Source: Candidatus Multivoradales bacterium
GTDB lineage: Bacteria; Acidobacteriota; Thermoanaerobaculia; Multivoradales; JAHEKO01
Direction: 5' to 3'
Assembly (NCBI GenBank): GCA_965223875.1
Contig: OZ245024.1
Coordinates: forward strand, 492,015 to 556,014
Length of the DNA stretch: 64,000 nt
Positions 5,801-38,019 of this stretch are shown here, in pieces. Positions within the stretch are counted from its first letter, which is position 1. The number at the start of each line of letters is the position of its first letter. The position numbers and the translations under genes were made by a program. The notes beneath the pieces were generated by a model. The model did no database searches, was not told where the DNA came from, and saw only the letters and a list, made by a program, of their open reading frames with translations.

Positions 5801-5844
5801 GCCGATCGCGCGATTCCCGCAACGCATTCGTGTATAATCCATGC

Positions 5845-6099
5845 ATGGCTACTAAGACGATTTCTCTAGAGCTCGATGCTTACGAGAAGCTCAAGCGAGC
5901 GAAGCGCTCCGACAGGGAGTCGTTCTCGTCAGTGGTGCGCCGAGCCCGCTTTGCACACGAGACCAAGACGGCAGAGCAGGTCCTGAGTGCCCTGAGAGGC
6001 CTGGCTGCGAACCACCCCGAAAGCCTGCTCAACGAGGAAACACTCAATCAACTGAGTGAGCGCGCCGGCTCGCGAGCCAGCCGAGCCCGCCCGAAATGA
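5845..6099 (+). CDS. VapB-like antitoxin
   Basis: 'MATKTISLELDAYEKLKRAKRSDRESFSSVVRRARF...' is the N-terminus of a small antitoxin. Its stop overlaps the start of the downstream PIN toxin (ATGA at 6096). Confidence 0.6.
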   Translation: MATKTISLELDAYEKLKRAKRSDRESFSSVVRRARFAHETKTAEQVLSALRGLAANHPESLLNEETLNQLSERAGSRASRARPK

Positions 6100-6482
6100 T
6101 CCTCGATACCACGGTTCTGGTCGATCTACAGAGGGAGCTGCGGCGGGAGGAGGCCGGCCCCGCGTCGCAACTTCTCGACGAGCTTCGCGAAACGGAGGTC
6201 GCCATAACCTTCGTCACCTGGATGGAGTTCGCCGAGGGCTACAGGGAAGACCAGCGCGAAGCGTGTGACCGTTTCCTGGCCCCGTTTCAGGTCCTCTGGC
6301 CCGATGCGGACACCGCCTGGCGAGCCGCTCGAATCTCGCGCTCTCTTCGGTCGCGAGGCAAGGCGATCGGAGATCACGACGCCTGGATCGCAGCACTCGC
6401 CCTGCAGCACGGCCGGTCCGTGGCCACGGCCAACGACCGCCACTTCAAGCGGGTGCCATCCCTAGCCGTGCGCACGTACTAG
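6096..6482 (+). CDS. vapC: VapC PIN-domain toxin
   Basis: 'MILDTTVLVDLQRE...' has a PIN-domain layout with conserved acidic residues (D4 and D-rich positions, 'HDAWIAALALQHGRSVATANDRHFKRV'). Confidence 0.75.
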   Translation: MILDTTVLVDLQRELRREEAGPASQLLDELRETEVAITFVTWMEFAEGYREDQREACDRFLAPFQVLWPDADTAWRAARISRSLRSRGKAIGDHDAWIAALALQHGRSVATANDRHFKRVPSLAVRTY

Positions 6483-9068: not shown

Positions 9069-9106
9069 CCGGAGAGTCCTCGAGAACCTCGAGAACCTCG
9101 AGAACA

Positions 9107-9157
9107 TGGTGTCCCCAACGGGATTCGAACCCGTGTTGCCAGCTTGAAAGGCTGGAG
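9107..9157. repeat. 51-bp direct repeat of the tRNA-Glu 3' end (att site of the integrated element, distal to int)
   Basis: 'tggtgtccccaacgggattcgaacccgtgttgccagcttgaaaggctggag' is identical to 18197-18247. It is preceded by a 3x 'ctcgagaac' tandem. Confidence 0.85.
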
Positions 9158-9276
9158 CTTGACATGCTCTAAAGGCATGTAAACCCAGGGCTTATCTGAA
9201 ACAGAGGATTGAGAGGTCCCCATTGGGGTCCCCAACAGGATCTACGTTCTGCCTTCTGGCCGGCTTGACCAGACCG

Positions 9277-9897
9277 TCACGGATCGGACTGTTTTCGTCG
9301 CCACCGCTCGTAGCGCTCCCACTTGGCGCGGTGCTCGTGACTGAAGGATGTTGCTTCGGAGGGCAGGAAGACGTAGCCAGGACGCTCTAGATCGAAGACT
9401 CCGAGGGCGAGGTTGAGCCGCAGGAGTCCGAGCTTGTTCTCGAGGTCGGCCTGGGAGAGCCCTTCGAGCTTGTCAGCCGAGTAGAAGCGAGGTAGGTCCT
9501 CAAGAGTGACTTGCTCCCAAGGGTCCACGGGAGCAGGTACTTGCTCTTCGGCGGGCTCGATCGCCGCATCCTCCTTGCCGATGTCCCCCAAGGTCTCCTC
9601 AAGCTCCCGCTCTAGCTCCAGCTGGGTCTCGATCAGCCGCGCCATGGTCGCGGCCCTGGCCTGAATATGGACGGCTTTCTCCCTGAACCGCTCGAGCTCG
9701 GGGATTGTCGCGGCGTCAGCCTCGCCGCCAAGGTACAGCCAGGCCTCCTCGAGGTCGCTGCGCGCCCGCTCAAGGCACTGCCAGGAGACGTCCGCCAGCC
9801 TGGCTCGCAACTCCTCCTGACTGAGCCCCTCGAGATCCTCTGGCTTCACGAAGTCGGGAAAGTCGTCGGCCGTGAGCTTGGAATCATCCGCAACCAC
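9277..9897 (-). CDS. Hypothetical acidic protein with internal repeat (island cargo)
   Basis: 206 aa. Contains the repeated motif 'DLEGLSQEELRARL'/'KLEGLSQADLENKL'. Confidence 0.4.
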   Translation of the reverse strand: MVADDSKLTADDFPDFVKPEDLEGLSQEELRARLADVSWQCLERARSDLEEAWLYLGGEADAATIPELERFREKAVHIQARAATMARLIETQLELERELEETLGDIGKEDAAIEPAEEQVPAPVDPWEQVTLEDLPRFYSADKLEGLSQADLENKLGLLRLNLALGVFDLERPGYVFLPSEATSFSHEHRAKWERYERWRRKQSDP

Positions 9898-9925
9898 GGC
9901 TGCCTCACCCTTCTCGGTTCTGCTC

Positions 9926-10234
9926 CTACTCGAGGTAGCCGCGTTCCTTCAGCTTCTTGAGGTAGTCCTCTCGGGACTCTGTGCATCCGACCATCGCATA
10001 GAGAGTGGACAGTTCACCTGGCTCAAGGCGAAGCTGCCCCGCGATCTGTCTCAGAAGGGACGGGTGGAGAGAAGCTGACCGCAGATTGCGTGAGAATCGA
10101 GTGGTGGTGACCCGCTTGTTGTTGACTGTGAGGGCGACGGCTTCATGCTTCTTGCCGGGGACTTCCTCGAAGCCAAACTTGCTAACTAGGGAGGTTTTCA
10201 GTTCCCCCTTCGTCACTACCGGGCGCTTACTCAC
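9926..10234 (-). CDS. Hypothetical small protein (possible toxin-like partner of the upstream ORF)
   Basis: 102-aa ORF. A 4-bp overlap with the upstream ORF suggests an operonic pair. Confidence 0.35.
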   Translation of the reverse strand: MSKRPVVTKGELKTSLVSKFGFEEVPGKKHEAVALTVNNKRVTTTRFSRNLRSASLHPSLLRQIAGQLRLEPGELSTLYAMVGCTESREDYLKKLKERGYLE

Positions 10235-10656
10235 CGAGGCACTGGGCCGAGAAAATACTCGAGCATGTGCAACTGATGGGCTAGGTGTTGCGAGAGTTCG
10301 CTGCGTGACTGGTCGAGTTCAGCGCGTGTCTCGAACAACATGTCAAGGAAGTCCTCTAGGGCTTCATCGAGCGAGTCACCTACGCCATATGCAGAGAGGA
10401 TCTCGTCACACACCATCGTTTGGCCGGCATCGATCTCCTGCCCGCTAAGAAGGAGAGGTCTCTTGAGGCCTGGTCCCTGCACCCGGAATACGACGGGGTG
10501 AGGTTCATACGGATAGTCGTCTGCCGAGGAGCTGACAGCACTTGGCCCAAAAGTGATCTGGTCGTGACTATTCAGCATCTTCCCCACCACTTGATCCCAA
10601 AATGGTGCGACCCTCATCGTAGCTACGCATGTTCTCAACGAGGGCGTGTGCCACAC
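10231..10656 (-). CDS. Hypothetical protein
   Basis: 141-aa ORF. Its true start is probably internal, because it overlaps the DUF3467 ORF. Confidence 0.3.
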   Translation of the reverse strand: MWHTPSLRTCVATMRVAPFWDQVVGKMLNSHDQITFGPSAVSSSADDYPYEPHPVVFRVQGPGLKRPLLLSGQEIDAGQTMVCDEILSAYGVGDSLDEALEDFLDMLFETRAELDQSRSELSQHLAHQLHMLEYFLGPVPR

Positions 10657-10894
10657 GTCTCATGGTTCCTGGCGAAAGTGCAACTCGCGCAACTGGGCGA
10701 ACACTCACCATCTCTGGCGTTTCGGCATTGAGCATCGATGCCGGGGGCGTGGCCTCCCCAAAGATCAGGTAGAACTCGTTTCCCGAAGCATGGGAAACAA
10801 CTACATGGTTGGCGAATACCGTCGACAGGTCATCGTCGTCATCCGACCAGACCAGCCGCACGATCTTGCGGTCCTCTTTCGGCACTGGGTTCAT
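10568..10894 (-). CDS. DUF3467 domain protein
   Basis: 'FANHVVVSHASGNEFYLIFGEATPP' resembles the DUF3467 core. Confidence 0.45.
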   Translation of the reverse strand: MNPVPKEDRKIVRLVWSDDDDDLSTVFANHVVVSHASGNEFYLIFGEATPPASMLNAETPEMVSVRPVARVALSPGTMRRVAHALVENMRSYDEGRTILGSSGGEDAE

Positions 10895-11047
10895 CCGCAG
10901 AATGAGAGATTAAACACTAGCATACCGCTGCCTGAACAACGGTGTCCTAGCGCGGCATCATCGGTGGTTGCAAGATGGGCGCCACCCGGCGCGACGGACG
11001 TGACCGGGTGACGCCTGGCTGGGCGAGATGAGGAAACCCAGCCGTTT

Positions 11048-11751
11048 CTAGGCTGCGGCTGGAGGCGTGTCCTTCGCCCGCTCCGCGAGCGTCCGAGCCT
11101 GAGCCGCTGCGATCTCATCAGCCCGAGCGGCTTCAGGATCGCGAGACTTGGCGATCTCAGCCGCAACGATGGTCTCGCCGACCCGAAGATGCTTGACGGC
11201 ATCCGACAGAGCGTCCGCGAGCCTGGCCTGCCCGGGGTCGAGCTGTCGGGCCACGTGCCGGCGCATGTCGGAGGTCGGAAGCAGGCCGAAGGCGCTTGGG
11301 CCACACAGCGCCGAGACAAGCACCTGCGGGTCATCCGCGTGCATCGCGTCGGTGATCGCCTTAGATCGCTCTGAACGCGGTAGGCCGAGCAGCCAGTCGC
11401 GCACCTCACGCTGCTGCCAGCTTGGGACACGCTCGACCACGGTCGAGCCAGAGAGCAGCTCAGCCTCTGCCAGGACCGCAGCTGCACGTGCCTTGCTGCC
11501 GTAGTCACGCTTGATCTTCCCGAGCTCCTCGCTGGCCTTGGCGGCTGCCCGGGTCTTGAGCCGTCGCTTGGCCATGTCTCCGATCTCGAGGTTGGCGTCG
11601 ATCCGCGCGATCTCGTCCCGGTGAGACTTCATCACTCCGCGCAGCGACCCGTAGCCGCTCTGGGCGCTTTGGAAGCCCGGCGTCTTGTAGTCGTCGGCGA
11701 ACTTCGGGAAGTCCGGCAGTTCGCCGAGGGTCATGCTCCGTTCGTCCGTCA
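11048..11751 (-). CDS. Hypothetical protein
   Basis: Start taken at the internal 'MTDERSMTLGELPDF'. The ORF track extends it to 12007 through the next small gene. Confidence 0.35.
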
Positions 11752-11976
11752 TGCTGCCTCCAGGTTCGCGAGCCGTTCGCGAAGCGCCCTGACGTATTCC
11801 CCGCCTCCCATCCAGGACTGAACTGCCTGGAACGTGTAGCGGATTCCATCGGGTGTCTCGATCCAGCCGGGGCCCGGCGTCGAGTGGACGGTGTGCCCTT
11901 CGCGCCAGGCCTGCAGGGTTGCTTCTGGGATCATGGTTTGAGTTGAAACGTCGGCTTCCGTCAGTAGGTCTTTCAT
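11749..11976 (-). CDS. Hypothetical small protein
   Basis: 75-aa ORF with clean coding composition. Confidence 0.3.
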   Translation of the reverse strand: MKDLLTEADVSTQTMIPEATLQAWREGHTVHSTPGPGWIETPDGIRYTFQAVQSWMGGGEYVRALRERLANLEAA

Positions 11977-12003
11977 GTGGTCCTTTCTGCCCTAGCGGGC
12001 GTG

Positions 12004-13455
12004 TCACCTCAAGAAGTTCGCGCGGGTCACGGTGACTTCGCCACCCACGTAGTCCTCCATCACGAGATAGCGCAGCGCGTCCGCGGCGTGGTCGGCCGCC
12101 CGGGTATCTACATCGTCCTCGTCTCTGGGGAGCGTTCGCAGCGTCTCCAGGAGGTAGCGGCAGCGATCGGAGATGAGCACCTGCGCCTCGCCGTCGTCGG
12201 CAAGTAGAAGGCGCCTGAGCCGCTCCCAGCCACCAACACGTGAGCCCTTTGTGGATTCACTCACGCGGATGCCGGAGCGTTCGTACTCTGCCGCCAGAGA
12301 ACCGCGATCGTGGCCGTGGCGAGCGAAGCAGGCGGCATCGAGAACCGCCCGCGTACCAAGTCCCCACTCATCGGCCTTTCCGTGAATGTGGAGCGCCGCG
12401 TCGGCGATATCGAGTCCCAGGCCCCGATTCAGGTCGTTGGGGTCGTGCAGGGCCACCTCGTCGATGATCGCCCAGGCCTCCTTGCTGACTTCCCGCCCAT
12501 CTGGAGTCGGTAGACCGGCATAGCGAGGGCGAATGGCCAGGAGGGCAACCAGTGGAGCCGAGCGGCCATGATCGATCGACCAGAGCGATCGCCAGCGCGG
12601 CGGCCCTTGCTCGTGTACTCGCCAGTCGGGACGGAAGGGCTTTCCGTTCTCGCTCTTGAGCCACTCGGGCGACCAGCTGTCGCCATCAAGCGTGATTCGC
12701 TCCCAGTTGACGCCCTCGAAGTAGATCCCGCCCCGAACGATGAACCAATCACCCCCGATCCACGCCTCTCTGAGCTCCGGATCGGTGGCGGTGGCGGCCA
12801 AGAGCTGCGCCTTGTAGCTCTCGTGGTCGAGGAAAGGGTTGTCCTCGTGGGTGCTCGGGCAGCTCACGAACTTGGCCCCAAGCTCGTCGGTCTCGTAGGG
12901 CAGCCAAGGGGTGCGACCATCGACGTGGCGCTGGCGCAGCCAGCTGTGCCCAACACCGCCAGGGTTTGCCGCCATCACCACGCGCGTCGGAACGCCGCGG
13001 GGCGAGCGGAGGTTGCCGCGAAGGCGATCGAGGATCTCGGGAGAGGACCACTCGCCGCACTCGTCGGCTAGGAGCAGCGTTGCCGAGCGGCCCTGGAACT
13101 TGGTGAGCTGCTGCTGTGTCTGTGCCTGCTGGAGCTCGAGCGTCGCACCGTTCGGGAATCGCCACACCTTGTCAGCGCTGTTGTACCGGGCGCTGGCGCC
13201 GTAGATCGAGCTGTAGAGCTCGAGCGTCAGGGTCTCGAAGTCCCGGACGCCCGGGAAGCTCTGACGGATGTAGAGAGCCCGAGCCCGGGCCCCGTACTGC
13301 TCGGCGTGTCGAAGGGCTAGCAGAGCCAGCGTGAAGGACTTCCCTCCCCCACGACCACCACCGAGGAAGAGGTCAACATCCTCGGGCGTCGCCAGGACGC
13401 GCTCCTGGAACGGCGAGAGCCTGATTGCCGCCTCAGCTTGTTCGGCTTTCGCCAT
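12004..13455 (-). CDS. Phage terminase large subunit-like ATPase
   Basis: Walker A 'FLGGGRGGGKSF' in the N-terminal ATPase region. 483 aa, within the size range of TerL. Confidence 0.6.
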   Translation of the reverse strand: MAKAEQAEAAIRLSPFQERVLATPEDVDLFLGGGRGGGKSFTLALLALRHAEQYGARARALYIRQSFPGVRDFETLTLELYSSIYGASARYNSADKVWRFPNGATLELQQAQTQQQLTKFQGRSATLLLADECGEWSSPEILDRLRGNLRSPRGVPTRVVMAANPGGVGHSWLRQRHVDGRTPWLPYETDELGAKFVSCPSTHEDNPFLDHESYKAQLLAATATDPELREAWIGGDWFIVRGGIYFEGVNWERITLDGDSWSPEWLKSENGKPFRPDWRVHEQGPPRWRSLWSIDHGRSAPLVALLAIRPRYAGLPTPDGREVSKEAWAIIDEVALHDPNDLNRGLGLDIADAALHIHGKADEWGLGTRAVLDAACFARHGHDRGSLAAEYERSGIRVSESTKGSRVGGWERLRRLLLADDGEAQVLISDRCRYLLETLRTLPRDEDDVDTRAADHAADALRYLVMEDYVGGEVTVTRANFLR

Positions 13456-13903
13456 TGGTGCCTCCCTGTAGTTGCTTCCGCTCGACGTGGGCGGTGATCT
13501 CCTTCTCGTAGCGCTCGAGAGGTAGTGCTCCGGGCAGGGCGATCGTGACGTTGGTCGTGGACTGCTGCGCTGGCTCTGGCGGCGGGCGGTCGTTCCAACG
13601 ATGGCGACTCTTCAGCAGAAAGATCGCCGGCGTGATTGCGCTCTGGTTCTTGACCTCGAGCGCCTGGTGGAGGCGGTCGAGCAGTCTCTTCTCGTGCGCA
13701 GCCTCGCCACGCTCGAGTCGAAGTGCAGCCACCTTGTCGCGCTTGATCTCCCGCTGGAAGTCGGCCCAGACCATCCCCAGCTCGGCAGCGACGCCCTTTC
13801 GAGTGCGACCCTCGCTCCCAAGCTCTTCGAGGACCGGGTAGTCGCGGCGGAACAGCTTGGACTTGAGCCTAGGCATCAGCTCGGCTCCACTGGGATGTCG
13901 CAT
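13433..13903 (-). CDS. Putative terminase small subunit / HTH DNA-binding protein
   Basis: The 156-aa ORF lies immediately upstream of the TerL-like gene. It has an HTH-like segment 'GRTRKGVAAELGMVWADF'. Confidence 0.35.
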   Translation of the reverse strand: MRHPSGAELMPRLKSKLFRRDYPVLEELGSEGRTRKGVAAELGMVWADFQREIKRDKVAALRLERGEAAHEKRLLDRLHQALEVKNQSAITPAIFLLKSRHRWNDRPPPEPAQQSTTNVTIALPGALPLERYEKEITAHVERKQLQGGTNGESRTS

Positions 13904-14175
13904 CGTGAGCAGAGAACGATCCGTTCGCCTCGCTCATCAGCCTTCTGACACGAGCTGCACCATCGCTCACGTGGCGCGCGACGCCTGACGATTGGGGTGT
14001 CCCATAGTTCGAGGAGATGAGGCTTGAGCCACCGGATGCGTGTCTTGATCTCGTCGGCCGGGAGGCCGGCTGGAATGAGGTAGTGCACCCGGTCGCCCTG
14101 CACGTCGAGTTCGACACCCTGGCTACTGAGGTCGCGCAGCACCTCCACGGCCTCAAGGTGGTAGGCATCGATCAC
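13876..14175 (-). CDS. Hypothetical protein
   Basis: 99-aa ORF overlapping its neighbours by 4 bp, consistent with an operon. Confidence 0.3.
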   Translation of the reverse strand: MIDAYHLEAVEVLRDLSSQGVELDVQGDRVHYLIPAGLPADEIKTRIRWLKPHLLELWDTPIVRRRAPRERWCSSCQKADERGERIVLCSRCDIPVEPS

Positions 14176-15452
14176 AGGTCGCCCTCCTCGGGTTTCATGT
14201 CACCGTCCCCTGACACCGATTCCGTGGCACGAAACCTCCCGCCATCTCGAGAATCTCCAACAGGCACAGGGTTTTCCGCCACCCTTGGTTTCGTGCCACT
14301 CTTATGAGTCAGGGGTTGACACGAAACCGGGAGTCTCCATGTCGATGGCCTCCCCCTCGCTGACTCATCTCGTTCAACGACGACACCGGCGAGCTTTCGA
14401 GCGCGATGCAGGGTCCTGCGGGCGATCCCGGCGGCCGTGGCCATTCGCTCGATTTCCTGGTACTTCGCTGGGCCGTCATCAAGAACGTCCCGAAGCCAAT
14501 CAGCGGCCTCGTCCCGTTCGGTGCGCTCCTCGTCGTTCGGCATCCGAACAATGACGTTGGGGTCTACGCCGCTCTCCTCGCCCAGCCAGACGACCTTGGC
14601 GGTGGAGATCGTCCCGCCGTCGTCGTGGGGGACCTGTCGTTCCTCGATCCTGAACCGGAGAGCAGGTACGCGGTGCCTGTCGACGAGGTTCGCCTTTGCC
14701 AGGACGAGGATGCGCTCCTGGACATCGTCCGGATGTACGCCAACCGCCAGTACCGATCGGGGTCCGGTGGTGAAACCCTTCGAGCCGATGACGCGGGTCA
14801 GAACATCACGCGACAGCTCGTTCTTGTTGATGTGCCCGATACCGACGCATCCGCACTGGTGCTGTTGGGCAAGCCCGGCCAGCCGTGAGATGGACCGCTG
14901 GACCTCGCTCTTTCGATGAGAGTCGACGGACTGACCGAGATGGGCGTCGAGCGGGTCGACAACGATCAATCCAACGCCATCGATACTCTCAAGCGCAGTA
15001 CCGAGGTCGTCTAGGTGCTCGTCTAGGGCGAATACGTTCCCGTCCGGAAGCTCAACAAAGTGAACTCGATCCATGACCGCACCTGCTGCCACCAAGCGCG
15101 GCAGGAGCACAGATGTCCAATCGTCCTCGTGCCCGACATAGACAACGGGTGCGGCTGTGCCTTGCACGTCGCCGGGTAGAACGCCGCGAGTCACCGACGC
15201 CATTGCGTCGCCCATGACGATCGTCTTCCCCAATCCCTCGAGGCCGGCGACCAGCGTCACCCCGCCCGTCGCGATTCGCTCCCGCCAGACCCATCGAGGG
15301 CGGGTCATTCGTAGGCTCGACGCTGAGACGAGCCGCAGACCACGCTCCGCCGGCTTCCTCGGCTCCGACTCGGAGAGCCTGCTGGCGATCTTCCTGTAAC
15401 GGTCGCGGTAGTACTGGCGTGCCGCTGGACTCATCTCGTCGAAGACCGTCAT
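14172..15452 (-). CDS. RepA-like AAA ATPase (AAA_25/RecA-fold) with C-terminal HTH, as in satellite-phage/island replication initiators
   Basis: P-loop 'GLEGLGKT', an acidic 'LIVVDPLDAH' Walker B-like segment, and a C-terminal 'ERMATAAGIARRTLHRARK' HTH. Confidence 0.55.
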   Translation of the reverse strand: MTVFDEMSPAARQYYRDRYRKIASRLSESEPRKPAERGLRLVSASSLRMTRPRWVWRERIATGGVTLVAGLEGLGKTIVMGDAMASVTRGVLPGDVQGTAAPVVYVGHEDDWTSVLLPRLVAAGAVMDRVHFVELPDGNVFALDEHLDDLGTALESIDGVGLIVVDPLDAHLGQSVDSHRKSEVQRSISRLAGLAQQHQCGCVGIGHINKNELSRDVLTRVIGSKGFTTGPRSVLAVGVHPDDVQERILVLAKANLVDRHRVPALRFRIEERQVPHDDGGTISTAKVVWLGEESGVDPNVIVRMPNDEERTERDEAADWLRDVLDDGPAKYQEIERMATAAGIARRTLHRARKLAGVVVERDESARGRPSTWRLPVSCQPLTHKSGTKPRVAENPVPVGDSRDGGRFRATESVSGDGDMKPEEGDL

Positions 15453-15622
15453 GCCGCTCGCCCCCGTCTGGCGGCGCGGTCCATGTCGATCTTCTCGAGC
15501 CGATCGAGCTCTGCGTGGATCTCGGGATACCGTTCTCGGGCCAGGCGGTCCTGGTTCTCAAGCGCCTCAAGCTCAGCAGCGATCTCCGCCTGAACTTGGG
15601 CAACCCTCTCTCGAGCGTTCAT
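15449..15622 (-). CDS. Hypothetical small coiled-coil protein
   Basis: The manual translation 'MNARERVAQVQAEIAAELEALENQDRLARERYPEIHAELDRLEKIDMDRAARRGRAA*' is in the minus-strand frame between AlpA and RepA. An ATGA overlap joins it to the RepA start. Confidence 0.3.
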   Translation of the reverse strand: MNARERVAQVQAEIAAELEALENQDRLARERYPEIHAELDRLEKIDMDRAARRGRAA

Positions 15623-15879
15623 GCCGCTGAACGCTGGCCCTGGTCGGATGTCGACTGGCAGATACGCTCAGCCGCCCAAGCCTCCAGATCTTCAACGCGA
15701 TAGCGGATAGCGCGCGCCGTCAACCGGCAGTGCGGCGGACCTTCGCCGGTCCTCCGCCAGCCCTCGAGCGTCCGCCTACTTAGCCCGAGATAGCTCGCTG
15801 CCCCCTGTGTATCGAGCAGTCCAACTGGTGCACTTCCCATTCCGCCACTCCCAAATGCCGGAGTTCGTCCCGGCCCCAC
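15619..15879 (-). CDS. alpA: AlpA-family excisionase/transcriptional regulator
   Basis: 'ASYLGLSRRTLEGWRRTGEGPPHCRLTARAIRYRVEDLEAWAAE' fits the AlpA/Xis HTH pattern. It lies upstream of the integrase. Confidence 0.65.
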   Translation of the reverse strand: MGPGRTPAFGSGGMGSAPVGLLDTQGAASYLGLSRRTLEGWRRTGEGPPHCRLTARAIRYRVEDLEAWAAERICQSTSDQGQRSAA

Positions 15880-16074
15880 GGAGAGGGATGTGCCCTACTG
15901 CGTCTGTCAGAGGGGATTGCGTTCCGATTCACACCCATCTCACTCTCCCATCGGTCGCCCCTGCGACCCCACGGAACTGCTGTATTTAGGTAATAGCACG
16001 CAGTCACTGAACCGTCAAGGCCCCTTCGGCGTAGCGAATGTCATCTGCGGGGAATCAATTTCGCTGCTTTCGGC

Positions 16075-16647
16075 TCATGTGCGAAGCCCCGAGATCCCGT
16101 GCCTGGCTGCGTACCGGAAGGCACCGGCGAGGACGTCGTGCGCGTGCTGAGAGTGGCCGATCCTCTCTAGCAGCAGCGCGCCTTCTACCAACAGGTCGAG
16201 TATCGTTTGTGGCGTTGCGACTACGTTGGAGTCCTGGTCCCTGAGCTGGGGCACCAGCAGTATGAGCTCGTGAAGCCGGCGGCGCGCCTCGGCTTGCGCT
16301 GGACGTCCCCGCTGAAGCAGGTCCAGGCGTTGCTCCGCCTCGGACCTCCACGCCTTCCTCTTGCGCCGGAGCTCTCGCTGCAGTTCGAGCTGGTCGACGT
16401 CGAAGAGACTCGCCAGGTGTTTCTGCGTCGCGCAGTGGTACTTGAGCGAGAACTTGTTCGCCGCGTTGGGCTGTATCACGTCGTCACAGCAGGGACGCCG
16501 CTCGCTCTCGCTCGGCCACCAGGCGCCGTCTTCATCGAGGTAGCCATCGGGTGGATTCGGCGCGCTTGACCTCCCGAACTCTCGTTCTCTGTAGGCGGTA
16601 GCGGCCAATCTCAGGCGTTCCTCGGTAGACTTCTCGTGGTTGCGCAT
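16075..16647 (-). CDS. Hypothetical protein
   Basis: 190-aa ORF. Confidence 0.35.
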   Translation of the reverse strand: MRNHEKSTEERLRLAATAYREREFGRSSAPNPPDGYLDEDGAWWPSESERRPCCDDVIQPNAANKFSLKYHCATQKHLASLFDVDQLELQRELRRKRKAWRSEAEQRLDLLQRGRPAQAEARRRLHELILLVPQLRDQDSNVVATPQTILDLLVEGALLLERIGHSQHAHDVLAGAFRYAARHGISGLRT

Positions 16648-16725
16648 CGGGCTTACTCCTTTGCGTGACTCGGCCCGTCCCGGAGTTGCCGCTCCAGGCG
16701 GGCCGTCTTGTGGTTCTCCGTCCGG

Positions 16726-18018
16726 CTAGGGACGGGCTTCTCCTGTTCGTTGTGGGCGGATCGGCACCACCTCCGCTCTTTCCCCGAGCCCCAGCAGCCT
16801 CGCAATCTCACCGGAGATCGCGTCAGCGGCCGGCCTGAGTAGTTCGGGGTCGTCCGTGATGTACCGTTTGGTGATGGCCTTCGCCTGGTGCCCATGGCCG
16901 AGCAGAGCGCCCACCACGCCGGCGTAGCGGCCATCCTGAATATGGGCACCGATCGACGCGAATGAGTGCCTCAGACTATGCAGATCGACACCCCTCTCAA
17001 GCGGTAGGCCGGCCCGCTTCCAGAGGCGCCGGCGCGTGTTGTTGAACGACCGGTATGGCTGCCCCTTGGTTGCTCCCGGAATCACGTAGCTGGCGGGCTT
17101 CGCCCCTTTGGGCTTCGCGGATCGTAAGACGTCGATCGCCGCCTTCCCGATGACTCGCTTCTGCGGCCCGGTCTTCGAGTCCTTCAACGTCACGACGCCG
17201 GCCTTGAGATCCACATCCCGCCACCGGAGTGCATCTCCGCCCCGAGATCGGTGCGCATGGCCAACCACCTCACCACGCCTGAACCCGGTCAGAGCCAGTA
17301 GGCGCACCAGCAGAACGATCCGATCGTTCTCGGTCCGGTGCATCTCCTCCCCTAGCTGCCGCAACTCCTCACGGGTCAGAGCTCGCCGAGATCCCTTCTC
17401 CTCGAATCTCTCGACGTACTTGCAAGGGTTCTCATCGACCAGGCCCTCGGCCTGAGCAAACCGGAAAGCCGCTGAGAGCGCCGTCAGGGTCCGATTCCCT
17501 GCGACCGGGGTGTCGGCCAGCCTGCGATGCGCGCGGCGCACCTGGGCGGCCGTGACGGTCTTGACGGGTAGCTTCCGAATGCTCCCCAACTCGTCCCGGT
17601 GCAGCATCCGGTCAAACTCGAGATAGGTACTCTTCCGGCCCCTCCTCGCTCCCGTCTCGACCCTCCGCTCGAGATCGCCGAGATACAGATCGATCGCCTC
17701 CCCGAGTGTGGTCCCCTCTCGCTTGCGCTCTGCGAGCACTTCTCCAACGTCCTGCCCTTCTGCCTCGATGCCCCTTCGGTCCCGCGCAGCCTTGCGAGCC
17801 TGGTCGAGGGTGATATCGCCGTAGGCATCGATGAAGGTCTCGGCTCGGCGGGGCCCACGCGCCCGGTGCCAGAACTCGACCTGACCTCGTCGCGCCCTGA
17901 CGTAGAGACCTGCCTGTCCACCATCTGCACGCTTGGCCTGGAAACTAGGGTCTGCCTGTGCTTCGCGGCGTAGCTGATCTAGGTCACGCTTGGTCAATGG
18001 TGCGGCACGCTTTGGCAT
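16726..18018 (-). CDS. int: Tyrosine-type site-specific integrase
   Basis: C-terminal catalytic motifs '...HSLRHSFASIGAHIQDGRYAGVVGALLGHGHQAKAITKRYI'. It lies directly downstream of the 3' end of the complete tRNA-Glu. Confidence 0.85.
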   Translation of the reverse strand: MPKRAAPLTKRDLDQLRREAQADPSFQAKRADGGQAGLYVRARRGQVEFWHRARGPRRAETFIDAYGDITLDQARKAARDRRGIEAEGQDVGEVLAERKREGTTLGEAIDLYLGDLERRVETGARRGRKSTYLEFDRMLHRDELGSIRKLPVKTVTAAQVRRAHRRLADTPVAGNRTLTALSAAFRFAQAEGLVDENPCKYVERFEEKGSRRALTREELRQLGEEMHRTENDRIVLLVRLLALTGFRRGEVVGHAHRSRGGDALRWRDVDLKAGVVTLKDSKTGPQKRVIGKAAIDVLRSAKPKGAKPASYVIPGATKGQPYRSFNNTRRRLWKRAGLPLERGVDLHSLRHSFASIGAHIQDGRYAGVVGALLGHGHQAKAITKRYITDDPELLRPAADAISGEIARLLGLGERAEVVPIRPQRTGEARP

Positions 18019-18196
18019 AGCTGGAGTCCTTCGTGGTCCCCATAAGGGTCCCCATAAACGCCCGCGTTGTCAAGTAGTCGAGCGTAGACGACGGTAGGCC
18101 ATGCGGGATAGGGGTCAGAGGTCGACACCTCGAGAAAGCCTGTTAGTGCCTGCCTTTGCCAGGCGTTCCTCCAGCTCGAAAAGGCCCTCTAGAAGG

Positions 18197-18274
18197 TGGT
18201 GTCCCCAACGGGATTCGAACCCGTGTTGCCAGCTTGAAAGGCTGGAGTCCTAGACCTGGCTAGACGATGGGGAC
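18197..18274 (-). tRNA. tRNA-Glu (anticodon UUC)
   Basis: Reverse complement: 'gtccccatcgtctagccaggtctaggactccagcctttcaagctggcaacacgggttcgaatcccgttggggacacca'. The 7-bp acceptor stem is GTCCCCA/TGGGGAC. The anticodon arm is ccagc-CTTTCAA-gctgg. The T-loop is TTCGAAT and a CCA end is present. Confidence 0.9.
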
Positions 18275-35631: not shown

Positions 35632-35876
35632 GACTCCCCTTCAAACGACAAACAGTTCAGCGGACACCACACTCGCCTCCCGGAACAAGCCGGTACCCGC
35701 TACAACTGTACACGAGGCACGAAAGTGCAACGGTCAAAGTATCTGGTATTCCGGCTTCGCCGTCCAGACCATCAGCATAGTAGCGACCCTCCAGTCATCG
35801 TCAAAGGGGATCCAGGCACTATCCTGGTTGGGTCGTGCTTTTCCACACTTCTGACCAAGCCAACCGAAAGAAGGCA

Positions 35877-36728
35877 ATGTACAACGGAAACGGAACGATC
35901 GCAGTCCGAAGCATCGAAGAGTTTGTGTCGCTAATTGCTATCCACCGGCAGTTCAAGCTCGGGCGGGGCGAGCCTCGCGCTTACGAGAAGGGTTGCTATC
36001 CGTCGGTCTGGCGCAAGGGACATCGATTTGCCGACCGGACGCCAGTTCGAACAGGGAGCAGCTTCACTCGTGGAGAGCTCGAGGCCTTGAAGGCCTGCGA
36101 GAGAGACTTCCAGGATGGGAACCTGGACGACCGGTTTATCCGCCGGCTCGAGAACCTACCGGCGGTCGAGGACTGCATCGACACCGAGGACCTCCTGGTC
36201 TGGGCGGCTCTCGCTCAGCATTACAACGATGAGATGCAGTATCCGACCCGTCTGCTCGACCTGACCTCAGATCCTCTCGTTGCATTGTTCTTCGCTGTCT
36301 GTTCGCAGCCAGACGAGAACGGCTTCGTTTTTGCTTTTCATGGGAACTACAACCGGCTCTTCGAAGCAGCCCGCCGGGAACCTCCTGGCCAGTGCTTCGA
36401 CATCACGTTGTTCTGGAACGAACAGGGCCATAAGTTCACACTGAATGCAAACACGGTCATGGTCTTCGAGCCGAGCTTTCCGAACCAGAGGCTAGCTGTT
36501 CAGCGAGGGCACTTCGGATTCACTAGGGGAATCGACCAGCATCTAATGAATCTCAGCCCATTGATCTACGAGATCCCCTACGAGAGAAAGGAGAGCATCG
36601 TCCAGGCCCTCGAGGGACTGAACGTCAGTGAGGAATGGCTCTTCCCTAAGACGACTTGGCAGCCAGCACGTCCATCGCGGCTAAGACATCGTCGTCGGTC
36701 GGGTGTACATAGCGCATCGTCGTTGTGA
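35877..36728 (+). CDS. FRG-domain protein (defence-island associated family)
   Basis: 'ALAQHYNDEMQYPTRLLDLTSDPLVALFFAV' matches the FRG-domain core as I remember it. The DNA is noticeably less GC-rich locally. It lies next to a decayed integrase and tRNA-Lys. Confidence 0.5.
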   Translation: MYNGNGTIAVRSIEEFVSLIAIHRQFKLGRGEPRAYEKGCYPSVWRKGHRFADRTPVRTGSSFTRGELEALKACERDFQDGNLDDRFIRRLENLPAVEDCIDTEDLLVWAALAQHYNDEMQYPTRLLDLTSDPLVALFFAVCSQPDENGFVFAFHGNYNRLFEAARREPPGQCFDITLFWNEQGHKFTLNANTVMVFEPSFPNQRLAVQRGHFGFTRGIDQHLMNLSPLIYEIPYERKESIVQALEGLNVSEEWLFPKTTWQPARPSRLRHRRRSGVHSASSL

Positions 36729-37640
36729 TGCTCGAGTGACCGAGGATCTTCTGCAGTACTGGCACCGGAATGCGACGGGCGAGATCAGTCGCCACCGAAT
36801 GTCGAATGTCATGAATTCGAGCAGGCCGCCCTTCGCCATCAGAAAGGTCGAGATCCTGGACCAGCCTGCGCCAGGCCCTGTCGATATTGACCAGGTGCTT
36901 GCCCGGTATGGCGCCCGGGAACACACACGGTCCCTGACGTGGTGCCAAGCGCAGCACCTCGACCGCCTCTTTTGAGAGTGGGATCTTGCGCTGACCGGTC
37001 TTGCCGTCCACCTTCACCCAGCGCCCCTCCATATCGACGTCGGTCCATCGCATCGAGAGGACCTCCGACTTGCGGGCCCGGTCAGGAGAAGCAACTGGAT
37101 TGCCAGGCTAGCGCCAGGCGAGAAAGCTCCAGCAGTGATCTCTTGGCGGGCGCGGTCCCGATCACCTGGAGACAGGTAGGTCTCTCTCCTCACCTCCTTG
37201 AATCGCTTAACGCTCTTCGTTGGCTTCAACGTGGGGTCAGATAGGCCATGCCGCTCGGCGACGGTGAACAAACGCGATAAGAGCGATAGCGCTCGGTTCG
37301 CGTTGGCCTCACCGGTCGCCTTTCCAAGACGCTGATGCCAGATCGTCACGTCACTGTGGCGAACAGCTGTCGCCTTCAGCTTGCCGAAAGTAGGGGCGAT
37401 CCCATTGAAGTCTTGGGCGCTCTTACGAGCCTGGGAAACCGTCCGAGTAGGAAACCTTCCAAGCGTGACCTTGTACTGGCGCCCGTCACGCCGGTACTTA
37501 TAGGTGAACGATTTTGATCCGCTGGGCGTGATCCGCAGGCCGAAATGCGGTGTCAGGGTTTCCCAGATGACGTATTCAGAAGGCTGCGCTCTTGCAGATA
37601 TGGCTACTGACTTGGTCAGTCGCTTCTTTATGGTACCGCT
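36646..37640 (-). pseudogene. P4-like tyrosine integrase, frameshifted and lacking a start codon
   Basis: Three frames carry consecutive integrase parts. The arm-binding N-terminus (37350-37640) is 'RLTKSVAISARAQPSEYVIWETLTPHFGLRITPSGSKSFTYKYRRDGRQYKVTLGRFP'. The core-binding region is 37014-37349. The catalytic C-terminus (36646-37053) ends '...HDIRHSVATDLARR...LGHSSITTTMRYVH'. Confidence 0.7.
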
Positions 37641-37766
37641 ATGGCACCAAGCCTAGGACATTCAGAGCATATTCGGGGTACGTTCCCGGCATAACAGGAC
37701 CTCCTGAAGAAGGCCCTAAGAACCAGCGAAAACCTAGGATCTACTTGCCGCAAAGGAGTATTCTGA

Positions 37767-37844
37767 TGGTGGGCCGTGAGGGAATCGAACCCCCGACCAT
37801 CAGATTAAAAGTCTGCAGCTCTACCAACTGAGCTAACGGCCCAC
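37767..37844 (-). tRNA. tRNA-Lys (anticodon UUU)
   Basis: The reverse complement 'gtgggccgttagctcagttggtagagctgcagacttttaatctgatggtcgggggttcgattccctcacggcccacca' is highly similar to E. coli tRNA-Lys. The anticodon loop is CTTTTAA. Confidence 0.9.
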
Positions 37845-38019
37845 GGGATCGGGCGCTTGGCGCTGTGCGATCCGGGCGAAAAGTAGCACAGGGGGGCGGG
37901 GGGACCAAGGGTTGGGCGGGCACGGGGTAGCCGGATCGATGTCGGGGTGGGATCTCTCCGCTTCGCGGCCGGTGGCCGCTACGGTCGAGATGACGAAGGG
38001 GGAGGGCGTGGAGACTTGA

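Follow-up and report, generated by a model that had tools for sequence, protein, structure and literature searches.

How might a mobile element that encodes a complete phage DNA-packaging enzyme, and none of the proteins that build a phage particle, move between cells? This question is raised by a 9,090-bp element in a 64,000-nucleotide stretch of Candidatus Multivoradales bacterium DNA (assembly GCA_965223875.1, contig OZ245024.1, positions 492,015 to 556,014), which we call the window and whose first letter is position 1 in all coordinates given here. A preliminary description made from the letters of the window had proposed a satellite-phage candidate resembling phage-inducible chromosomal islands (PICIs). 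From the analyses presented below, we consider it probable, with moderate confidence, that we have here an integrative phage satellite which depends on a helper and encodes its own complete terminase, comprising a small subunit (TerS) and a large subunit (TerL).

The boundaries of the element are evident from two exact copies of a 51-bp direct repeat (9107-9157 and 18197-18247), whose start-to-start distance gives the element size. The bases flanking the copies differ on both sides (a9106 versus g18196, and c9158 versus t18248), and with an expectation of ~1e-21 for an exact repeat of this length in 64 kb, chance cannot account for it. The repeated sequence is the 3′ portion of tRNA-Glu(UUC), starting at the CCA end and reaching as far as the anticodon stem and loop. 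At the integrase end, the tRNA gene (18200-18274, minus strand) is complete and matches the full Rfam model with 62.6 bits. The distal copy also yields a match on the minus strand, of 39.3 bits, but it was rejected as a second tRNA gene because its acceptor stem is broken and its D-arm is shortened, which identifies it as a displaced 3′ half. The element has thus integrated site-specifically into the 3′ end of tRNA-Glu, with the gene restored at the integrase end and its former 3′ half displaced to the distal end. The perfect repeats and their tRNA-Glu location, both noted in the preliminary description, were reproduced by exact comparison of the copies and by ARAGORN and Rfam, respectively. 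The GC content inside the element is ~0.63-0.66, near that of the flanks, with a dip to 0.57 at 10.0-11.0 kb.

Two further features were observed next to these attachment (att) sites. A threefold tandem CTCGAGAAC at 9079-9105 lies directly outside the distal repeat. In addition, the 30 nucleotides beside the two repeat copies (9079-9105 and 18167-18196) are ~60% alike, and an 81-nucleotide alignment is 85% alike overall. This likeness may represent an extended similarity of the att arms or may be due to chance.

The element carries genes for integration, excision-type regulation and replication, and all of its credible genes lie on the minus strand, as judged by third-position GC and open reading frame (ORF) analysis. 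The integrase beside the tRNA gene is intact, as had been described. Residues 1-404 match phrog_1 with an E value of 2e-38, in addition to the matches listed in Table 1, and the sequence shows the Box I arginine, HxLRH and C-terminal tyrosine motifs. The gene earlier called an AlpA-type excisionase does encode an excisionase-type protein, but of the HTH_17/MerR-like class and not of the Pfam AlpA model. The phrog_66 family that it matches is labelled ‘excisionase and transcriptional regulator’, its match to TIGR01764 ‘excise’ is weak, and the protein has 72 amino acids if translation starts at 15837.

The replication protein (Rep), previously described as a RepA-like ATPase with a C-terminal helix-turn-helix (HTH), is identified as an AAA_25 ATPase by its Pfam match, and the HTH is suggested by the sequence, with no profile match above threshold. 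Rep also matches the C-terminal, helicase half of the DNA polymerase/primase family phrog_10729 (1.6e-32), as well as other primase/helicase PHROGs, and no primase domain was found in it with Pfam or PHROGs. Sibling islands carry an AAA_25, PrimPol-D5 or DUF5906 replicase at the same position. Within the last codons of the rep gene are four copies of GGTTTCGTGYCA in alternating orientation (14191-14328). These account for all four matches to this motif in the window, in which 0.28 would be expected, and none of 100 shuffled sequences reached four. We propose that this cluster is a candidate iteron origin.

Several lines of evidence indicate that the TerL-like ATPase of the preliminary description is a genuine, full-length large terminase subunit. 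Its Pfam matches to Terminase_3 (4e-10) and Terminase_6N (1.5e-8) are both above the gathering score, and it matches phrog_979 and phrog_2 at ~1e-25, the latter over residues 11-472. When aligned with 25 homologues of 41-47% identity, the Walker A motif GGGRGGGKS (residues 32-40; G34-S40) and the Walker B motif LLLADE (residues 127-132; D131-E132) are invariant, as are the C-terminal acidic residues D295, D373, D455 and D459, which by analogy are likely to be the catalytic residues of the nuclease. An AF2 model built on the same alignment has a mean predicted local distance difference test score (pLDDT) of 84, and its best PDB folds, as found by Foldseek, are the full-length terminases D6E (E = 2e-17 over 479 aligned columns), Sf6 gp2, HK97 and T4 gp17. 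A profile of the 25 TerLs searched against PDB sequences gave no match even at E = 10, a result that reflects only the divergence of terminases. Taken together, profiles, motifs and predicted fold argue for a two-domain enzyme with an RNase-H-like nuclease domain.

The possible small subunit noted earlier can be assigned as TerS by family membership. Its family comprises 25 sequences that are always encoded directly before TerL, 19 of which match the terminase small subunit family phrog_309, and the protein has a predicted N-terminal HTH. From the HTH_17 gene through the gene for a protein that we call X, most neighbouring genes overlap by 4-23 nucleotides, with one gap of 27 nucleotides between the TerL gene and the following 75-amino-acid gene. 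Therefore, these genes appear to form one translationally coupled operon. A scan for promoters and terminators revealed nothing above background.

The preliminary description had also stated that capsid, portal and tail genes are absent, and this holds in each search that we made. No capsid, portal, protease, connector, tail or lysis family was found on any element ORF with Pfam, PHROGs or NCBIfam, and when the portal, major capsid protein (MCP), scaffold, head-morphogenesis and neck proteins of related loci were used as tblastn queries, only TerL matched in the window. Prophage hallmark genes or their pseudogenised remains (portal, major capsid, tail, lysis) were likewise not found in the element or the window. 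Besides the integrase, Rep and TerL, the longest element protein is X with 235 amino acids, and no remaining ORF has the length needed for a portal. Therefore, neither of the two outcomes that had been named as fatal to the satellite proposal, unrelated ATPases or hidden structural genes, emerged from the profile, fold and tblastn checks. Pfam and NCBIfam searches of all ORFs also gave no match to an FtsK/TraB-type translocase, relaxase, coupling protein or Nudix protein. General PHROG and Pfam scans, which included no dedicated P4 profiles, gave no match on any ORF to P4 Sid, Psu, Delta, Ash or the alpha primase-helicase.

Protein X is a conserved neighbour of the terminase, as evident by the fact that its homologues lie beside TerL in 18 loci, directly upstream or downstream. 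Its AF2 model, built on a three-sequence alignment, is all-helical with a pLDDT of 62, and X is thus not expected to be an HK97-fold capsid protein, subject to the low confidence of this model. No family match was found for X, a PDB profile search with it was uninformative, a word-indexed homologue search gave two close matches only, an HMMER scan of 1.84 billion representatives gave five uninformative matches, and Foldseek found nothing among viral structures at E <= 0.001. We hypothesize that X acts most likely as a scaffold-like or capsid-remodelling factor, or else as an accessory factor of the terminase.

To place the element among its relatives, we examined the gene context of TerL homologues on contigs from metagenomes, as well as in 80 loci of GTDB species representatives, and clustered the genes found there. 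Hundreds of homologues exist. The best, at 97% identity, is encoded on a 6.5-kb contig whose genes follow the order seen in the element, and beyond it is a broad set at 40-48% identity. TerLs that are at least 37% identical to that of the element sit in small islands whose genes encode a tyrosine or sometimes a serine integrase, an HTH protein of excisionase type, a replicase, TerS and TerL, with housekeeping genes soon after. At one edge, almost all of these loci carry a tRNA gene, and in 14 of them TerL is enclosed by a direct repeat that derives from a tRNA, measures 20 nucleotides or more and delimits elements of 8.2-15.1 kb. Of 39 such loci, 3 have a portal-size ORF after TerL, compared with 58 of 84 loci whose TerLs are at most 33% identical. 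Among the three exceptions, two are the same phage, and the other is a gene of the host that lies outside the att repeat.

A pooled PHROG scan of the 138 proteins of 14 islands other than integrases and TerLs revealed primases, helicases, excisionases and TerS, with MCP and scaffold-like proteins in a subset, and no portal, connector or tail family is among the 25 families listed. Eleven islands (L008, L010, L013, L016, L017, L019, L020, L021, L031, L039 and L042) encode an MCP (phrog_247, E down to 3.8e-100) beside TerS and TerL, nearly always with a scaffold-like protein and never with a portal. They form a second family variant that lies between the element studied here and the capsid-forming PICIs (cf-PICIs). 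The hosts of the related islands are Alpha-, Beta- and Gammaproteobacteria, Acidobacteriota and Balneolaceae, and the cultured carriers include Pseudomonas paraeruginosa ATCC 9027, Stenotrophomonas nitritireducens STE1, Marinobacter zhanjiangensis KCTC 22280, Hyphomonas polymorpha PS728 and Sphingomonas cynarae JCM 17498.

Loci that lack X often carry either an unrelated protein of ~250 amino acids (cluster c7) or the pair of scaffold-like protein and MCP. More than one of these three modules is present in a single locus only (L012), which has a scaffold-like gene together with a weak X match. Comparisons with hhalign detected no relationship among X, c7 and the scaffold-like family (c3). Because the three modules are distributed among loci in a nearly exclusive manner, their co-occurrence pattern suggests that they are alternative solutions to one task, which is probably related to the capsid.

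The packaging genes of the element are maintained by selection, as evident by ratios of nonsynonymous to synonymous substitution (dN/dS) calculated against three sibling elements of one metagenome. These ratios are 0.015-0.2 for TerS, 0.07-0.15 for TerL and 0.125-0.19 for X, all of which are therefore under purifying selection, and they are 0.2-0.5 for the 75-amino-acid gene and 0.145 for the 57-amino-acid gene. Identity among the siblings is mosaic. Rep is 100% identical to its counterpart in sibling L005, yet the TerL genes of the same pair have a dS of 0.23. Sibling L166 has 92% nucleotide identity in the packaging module and differs in the left half of the element. Modules therefore recombine among living elements.

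Known phages offer few close relatives of this terminase. A TerL search of 50,697 phage genomes gave 29.6% identity at best, and a megablast search of the whole element against the same genomes gave no match. In IMG/VR, 4 of the best 80 contigs carry a TerL at 42-44% identity and the next are at most 31% identical. Two of the four contigs are islands, and the other two represent a genome fragment of one uncultured siphovirus (L087 and L088, which are IMGVR_UViG_3300031539_003124 and IMGVR_UViG_3300031565_001243; GC 0.63-0.65). Behind the L088 TerL gene lie those for a portal (phrog_145, 5.9e-97), a gp7-like protein of head morphogenesis, an MCP, adaptors and a minor tail protein. The L088 TerL is 44% identical to that of the element and 58-61% identical to several island TerLs, and it nests within the island clade in a neighbour-joining tree. 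By sequence, then, the island TerLs form a clade that is distinct from known phage TerLs, with one phage contig nested within it. L087/L088 may represent a helper-type lineage, and a terminase shared with such a lineage is what would be expected if a satellite motor must fit that lineage's portal.

The features of the element are collected in Table 1. The 206-amino-acid protein that is encoded last has an internal duplication of an ‘...EDLEGLSQ.EL...’ / ‘(D/K)LEGLSQ..L’ segment, and the C-terminal end and stop region of its gene are 98% identical to those of the shorter, 92-amino-acid last gene of L166. The true start of the ORF at 10231-10656 is probably later than listed, as its 5′ part overlaps the DUF3467 gene. 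A PADLOC analysis of ten element proteins gave no credible defence match, and the weak DruL match of the 102-amino-acid protein (0.0064) was not counted as evidence.

Table 1. Features of the integrated element, in window coordinates, from the distal att repeat to the tRNA gene.
Feature	Coordinates	Strand	Evidence or remark
Distal att repeat	9107..9157	-	Displaced 3′ 51 nt of tRNA-Glu; pseudo-tRNA 9110-9176
206-aa protein, last gene of element	9277..9897	-	No Pfam, PHROG or PADLOC match
102-aa protein	9926..10234	-	Accessory region, GC dip 0.57; no significant family match
ORF, at most 141 aa	10231..10656	-	ORF list; no Pfam, PHROG or PADLOC family match
DUF3467 protein, 108 aa	10568..10894	-	Pfam PF11950 6.7e-8, above gathering score
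Protein X, 235 aa, predicted all-alpha	11048..11755	-	Conserved partner of terminase genes
75-aa gene between TerL and X	11749..11976	-	Also called in siblings L005, L166 and L167; no family match
TerL, 483 aa, predicted ATPase and nuclease domains	12004..13455	-	Pfam, PHROG, conserved motifs, AF2/Foldseek
TerS, 147 aa	13433..13876	-	Family membership; stop overlaps TerL start by 23 nt
99-aa protein	13876..14175	-	Weak TubC_N match 1.5e-5, just under gathering score; identical in L005
RepA-like AAA_25 replicative ATPase/helicase, 426 aa	14172..15452	-	Pfam AAA_25 2.5e-24
Candidate replication origin	14191..14328		Four GGTTTCGTGYCA copies inside rep 3′ end
57-aa gene between HTH_17 gene and rep	15449..15622	-	4-nt overlaps on both sides; called in L005
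HTH_17 (MerR-like) excisionase/activator-type DNA-binding protein	15619..15879	-	PF12728 6.4e-12; phrog_66 2e-11
190-aa protein beside integrase	16075..16647	-	No match in any library (Pfam, PHROGs, NCBIfam, PADLOC)
Tyrosine integrase, 430 aa, arm-binding N-terminal domain	16726..18018	-	Phage_integrase 4.9e-10; Arm-DNA-bind_3 1.4e-6
Intact tRNA-Glu(UUC)	18197..18274	-	ARAGORN, Rfam; 3′ 51 nt (18197-18247) = integrase-proximal att repeat

Other parts of the window also hold features of interest. ORFs with low third-position GC at 35835-37923 lie beside a tRNA-Lys(UUU) gene (37767-37842), and one of 111 amino acids (37014-37349, minus strand) resembles, judged from its translation alone, the N-terminal portion of a tyrosine integrase. 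This region is likely to be what is left of a further island integrated at a tRNA gene. Upstream of the element, at 245-698 and 5830-6482, are two adjacent gene pairs whose translations resemble toxin-antitoxin modules, one with a ribbon-helix-helix-type protein and a ParE/RelE-like partner, and the other with a VapB-like protein and a PIN-like partner.

The gene content of the element permits us to propose how a satellite of this type might operate. Resident in the 3′ end of tRNA-Glu, where its own tyrosine integrase would have placed it, the element would be activated, presumably by a helper phage, and the HTH_17 protein of excisionase/activator type would then drive excision. The same protein would also drive the operon that consists of the HTH_17 gene, the 57-amino-acid gene, rep, the 99-amino-acid gene and the genes for TerS, TerL, the 75-amino-acid product and X. 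The RepA-like AAA_25 helicase would replicate the circular form from the iteron cluster, with priming by the host or the helper. The element's TerS would recognise element DNA, which its TerL would cut and pump into procapsids, and portal, capsid and tail would all be supplied by the helper. X could serve as a third component of the packaging module by remodelling capsids to a size compatible with a 9-kb genome, or by mediating the contact between terminase and portal. If capsids are not resized, then concatemers might be packaged by a headful mechanism, as reported for PICMIs (phage-inducible chromosomal minimalist islands) and for VEIMEs (virion-encapsidated integrative mobile elements) (PMC10803314, PMC9618062).

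We extend this proposal more tentatively to the relatives of the element. Perhaps, although with confidence somewhat short of even, they are a family of satellites that spans several phyla, each combining a complete TerS and TerL with one of the three interchangeable third modules and no portal, and parasitising the portal, procapsid and tail of a helper, such that a foreign motor routinely docks on the helper portal. The family would then occupy the space between PICIs, which take all but TerS from the helper, and cf-PICIs, which take tails alone.

Several points weigh against interpreting the element as a helper-dependent satellite. Its induction, excision, replication, encapsidation and dependence on a helper are steps that we infer from its genes, and no helper phage is seen in the window, which covers 64 kb of a 5.05-Mb contig. 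Packaging would also require the TerL of a satellite to dock on a portal that is foreign to it, and we know of no capsid-less satellite in which such docking has been demonstrated. The TerS of the window, taken alone, is under the threshold of the TerS profile, and X is without a detectable relative of known function and has a model of low confidence. The rarity of island-clade TerLs in IMG/VR makes for thin evidence that these elements travel in virions. Finally, sibling L166 (ena:ERZ25072999:ctg275362_176x_c, 8,504 bp) appears from its name suffix to be circular at 176-fold coverage, compared with ‘9x_l’ and ‘5x_l’ in the names of other siblings, and this would be suggestive of an excised and amplified form. 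However, it is precisely at the contig junction that the integrase ORF of L166 is interrupted, and a stop codon lies just upstream. The interruption makes the circularity or completeness of this contig doubtful, and the linear 5x sibling contig L167 begins at the same base. This shared start may reflect a genuine breakpoint (an att site or packaging end) or an assembly artefact, and for these reasons we have downgraded L166 as proof of an excised form.

Some of these same observations would also be expected if the element were an anti-phage interference island, whose TerS and TerL (and X) mainly sabotage the packaging of an infecting phage by competing for procapsids or cutting phage concatemers, which would shield the host population, with little or no transfer of the element itself. 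Known satellites commonly block helper packaging according to the literature, the island-clade TerLs are rare in a collection of viral contigs, and the accessory genes have no known function. However, no PADLOC defence family is matched, and the integrase, excisionase-type gene, replicase and perfect att repeats have all been kept. A complete TerS with an HTH under strong purifying selection fits the recognition of the element's own DNA, and the presence of relatives in many different tRNA genes across phyla requires frequent horizontal transfer. We therefore view an element devoted to interference as unlikely, while recognizing that interference and transfer are not exclusive. Lower still is the probability that integration, replication and terminase genes were simply left behind in a prophage that lost its structural genes. 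Every recognisable gene is indeed of phage type, and the TerL of a real phage nests in the same clade. However, such decay is improbable because at least 14 tRNA-bounded islands, integrated independently in different phyla and different tRNA genes, share this compact layout and size, and because TerS, TerL and X have dN/dS values far under 1. The att repeats are moreover perfect and only 9.09 kb apart, the operon is tightly overlapping with no pseudogenes, and the TerL clade is far from the TerLs of the 50,697 phage genomes.

It is also conceivable that no helper is involved. The seven or eight ORFs without detectable homologues of known function, among them those for X, the 206-amino-acid protein and the DUF3467 protein, might build a novel particle and make the element a self-sufficient minimal virus, and some sibling islands do encode an MCP and a scaffold. 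However, a TerL motor needs a portal, which no ORF outside the three longest is of a size to encode, and the siblings that bear an MCP are also without one. The all-helical prediction for X is not HK97-like, and no lysis or adsorption genes were found. Such self-sufficiency is thus very improbable. The idea to which we assign the least weight, and which we consider highly improbable, is transfer by conjugation. Small size, integration into a tRNA gene and a core of integrase, excisionase and replicase resemble actinomycete integrative conjugative elements (AICEs) and integrative mobilisable elements, and under this scenario the terminase-like ATPase would be a DNA translocase or concatemer resolvase. 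The searches for conjugation-type proteins described above argue against this, as does the nature of the ATPase, which by all indications is a genuine TerL that includes a nuclease domain and has a TerS as its partner. The host is, in addition, probably a member of Acidobacteriota and not an actinomycete, an assignment made tentatively from the adenine deaminase, whose neighbours are 74-75% identical. We therefore return to the helper-dependent satellite as the reading that we prefer, and consider below where such a satellite would stand among those already described.

Satellites differ in how much of the packaging machinery they own, in that PICIs, PICMIs, P4 and PICI-like elements (PLEs) borrow the large terminase of the helper and cf-PICIs bring the whole head. 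The criteria for a classical PICI are an integrase with att sites, an AlpA, MerR or Stl regulator, a primase-replicase with an origin, packaging redirected by TerS and/or capsid-morphogenesis genes in the absence of other structural or packaging genes of phage type, use of the helper TerL, and induction and packaging by a helper phage (PMC10085698, de Sousa et al. 2023). Gram-negative PICIs with the order int-alpA-pri/rep-packaging, such as EcCICFT073, share with the element a size of ~9-10 kb, an integrase at one end by the att site, a regulator of the AlpA/MerR class, a replicase of their own with an adjacent origin (a candidate origin in our case), a single gene orientation, a TerS that redirects packaging (predicted for the element) and the lack of structural and lysis genes. 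Unlike PICIs, the element encodes a full TerL, has an AAA_25 helicase without a primase domain as its replicase, carries no recognised homologue of the PICI capsid-morphogenesis genes, belongs to a host that is probably of a different phylum (Acidobacteriota) and is only predicted to be induced by a helper. The element fails the strict PICI definition by encoding TerL, although its working would be PICI-like; the satellite part of the earlier proposal is thus supported, and a strict classification as either a PICI or a cf-PICI is not.

Other small satellites, namely PICMIs, VEIMEs and PICI-like tycheposons, encode TerS or MCP at most and are assumed to use the helper TerL (PMC10803314, PMC9618062, bioRxiv 10.1101/2020.12.28.424599). 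They resemble the element in being small, integrated at tRNA genes or att sites, equipped with an integrase and a replication gene, and found mostly in environmental bacteria, and the packaging of concatemers in full-size capsids by PICMIs and VEIMEs is a possible solution for a 9-kb genome. They carry at most one or two packaging genes, however, whereas the element brings its own TerL. The gene sets of EPIPs and of ‘twilight’ mini HK97 elements also differ from that of the element. The closest counterparts of the motor itself are headful terminases of the SPP1/PBSX-type siphoviruses, exemplified by L088, which belong to the same domain families (Terminase_3/Terminase_6N). In the element, the genes that follow TerL in L088, from the portal onward, are replaced by the 75-amino-acid gene, the gene for X and small genes of no known function.

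A precedent for the hypothesized function of X may be found in Sid of P4, CpmB of Staphylococcus aureus pathogenicity islands (SaPIs) and TcaP of PLEs, which are scaffolds that redirect capsid size for the benefit of a satellite. X would resemble these proteins in size and character, being ~235 amino acids long, predicted to be all-helical, fast-evolving and encoded in a packaging module, but no sequence or fold similarity was detected. No published description was found of capsid-less, portal-less satellites with a complete terminase, although our coverage of the literature is incomplete and this is absence of evidence only. If our interpretation is correct, satellites would extend to Acidobacteriota, Balneolaceae and many environmental Proteobacteria, in which none were found described in the literature searched, and the relatives present in cultured strains make experiments feasible.

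The most instructive comparison is with cf-PICIs, which encode a capsid, protease, portal, head-tail adaptor/connector and HNH protein and steal only tails (bioRxiv 10.1101/2022.09.08.507074). In SatelliteFinder, an element is assigned to this class if it has at least 9 of 11 core components (PMC10085698). The element resembles cf-PICIs such as EcCIEDL933 in having its own TerS and TerL, with a TerL clade that is deeply separate from known phage TerLs, as has also been reported for theirs. However, it fails the strict cf-PICI definition, as capsid, protease, portal, connector and HNH genes were not found and only integrase, regulator, Rep, TerS and TerL are present, and even its siblings with an MCP and scaffold differ from cf-PICIs in being without a portal. 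Elements with TerS and TerL, and those with TerS, TerL, MCP and scaffold, would be natural intermediates for studying the origin of satellites from phages. Packaging specificity and motor would be owned by the satellite, and the procapsid, including its portal, by the helper, which raises the question of how TerL recognises a foreign portal. Ownership of the packaging enzyme alone would then constitute a third satellite strategy, situated between that of PICIs and that of cf-PICIs.

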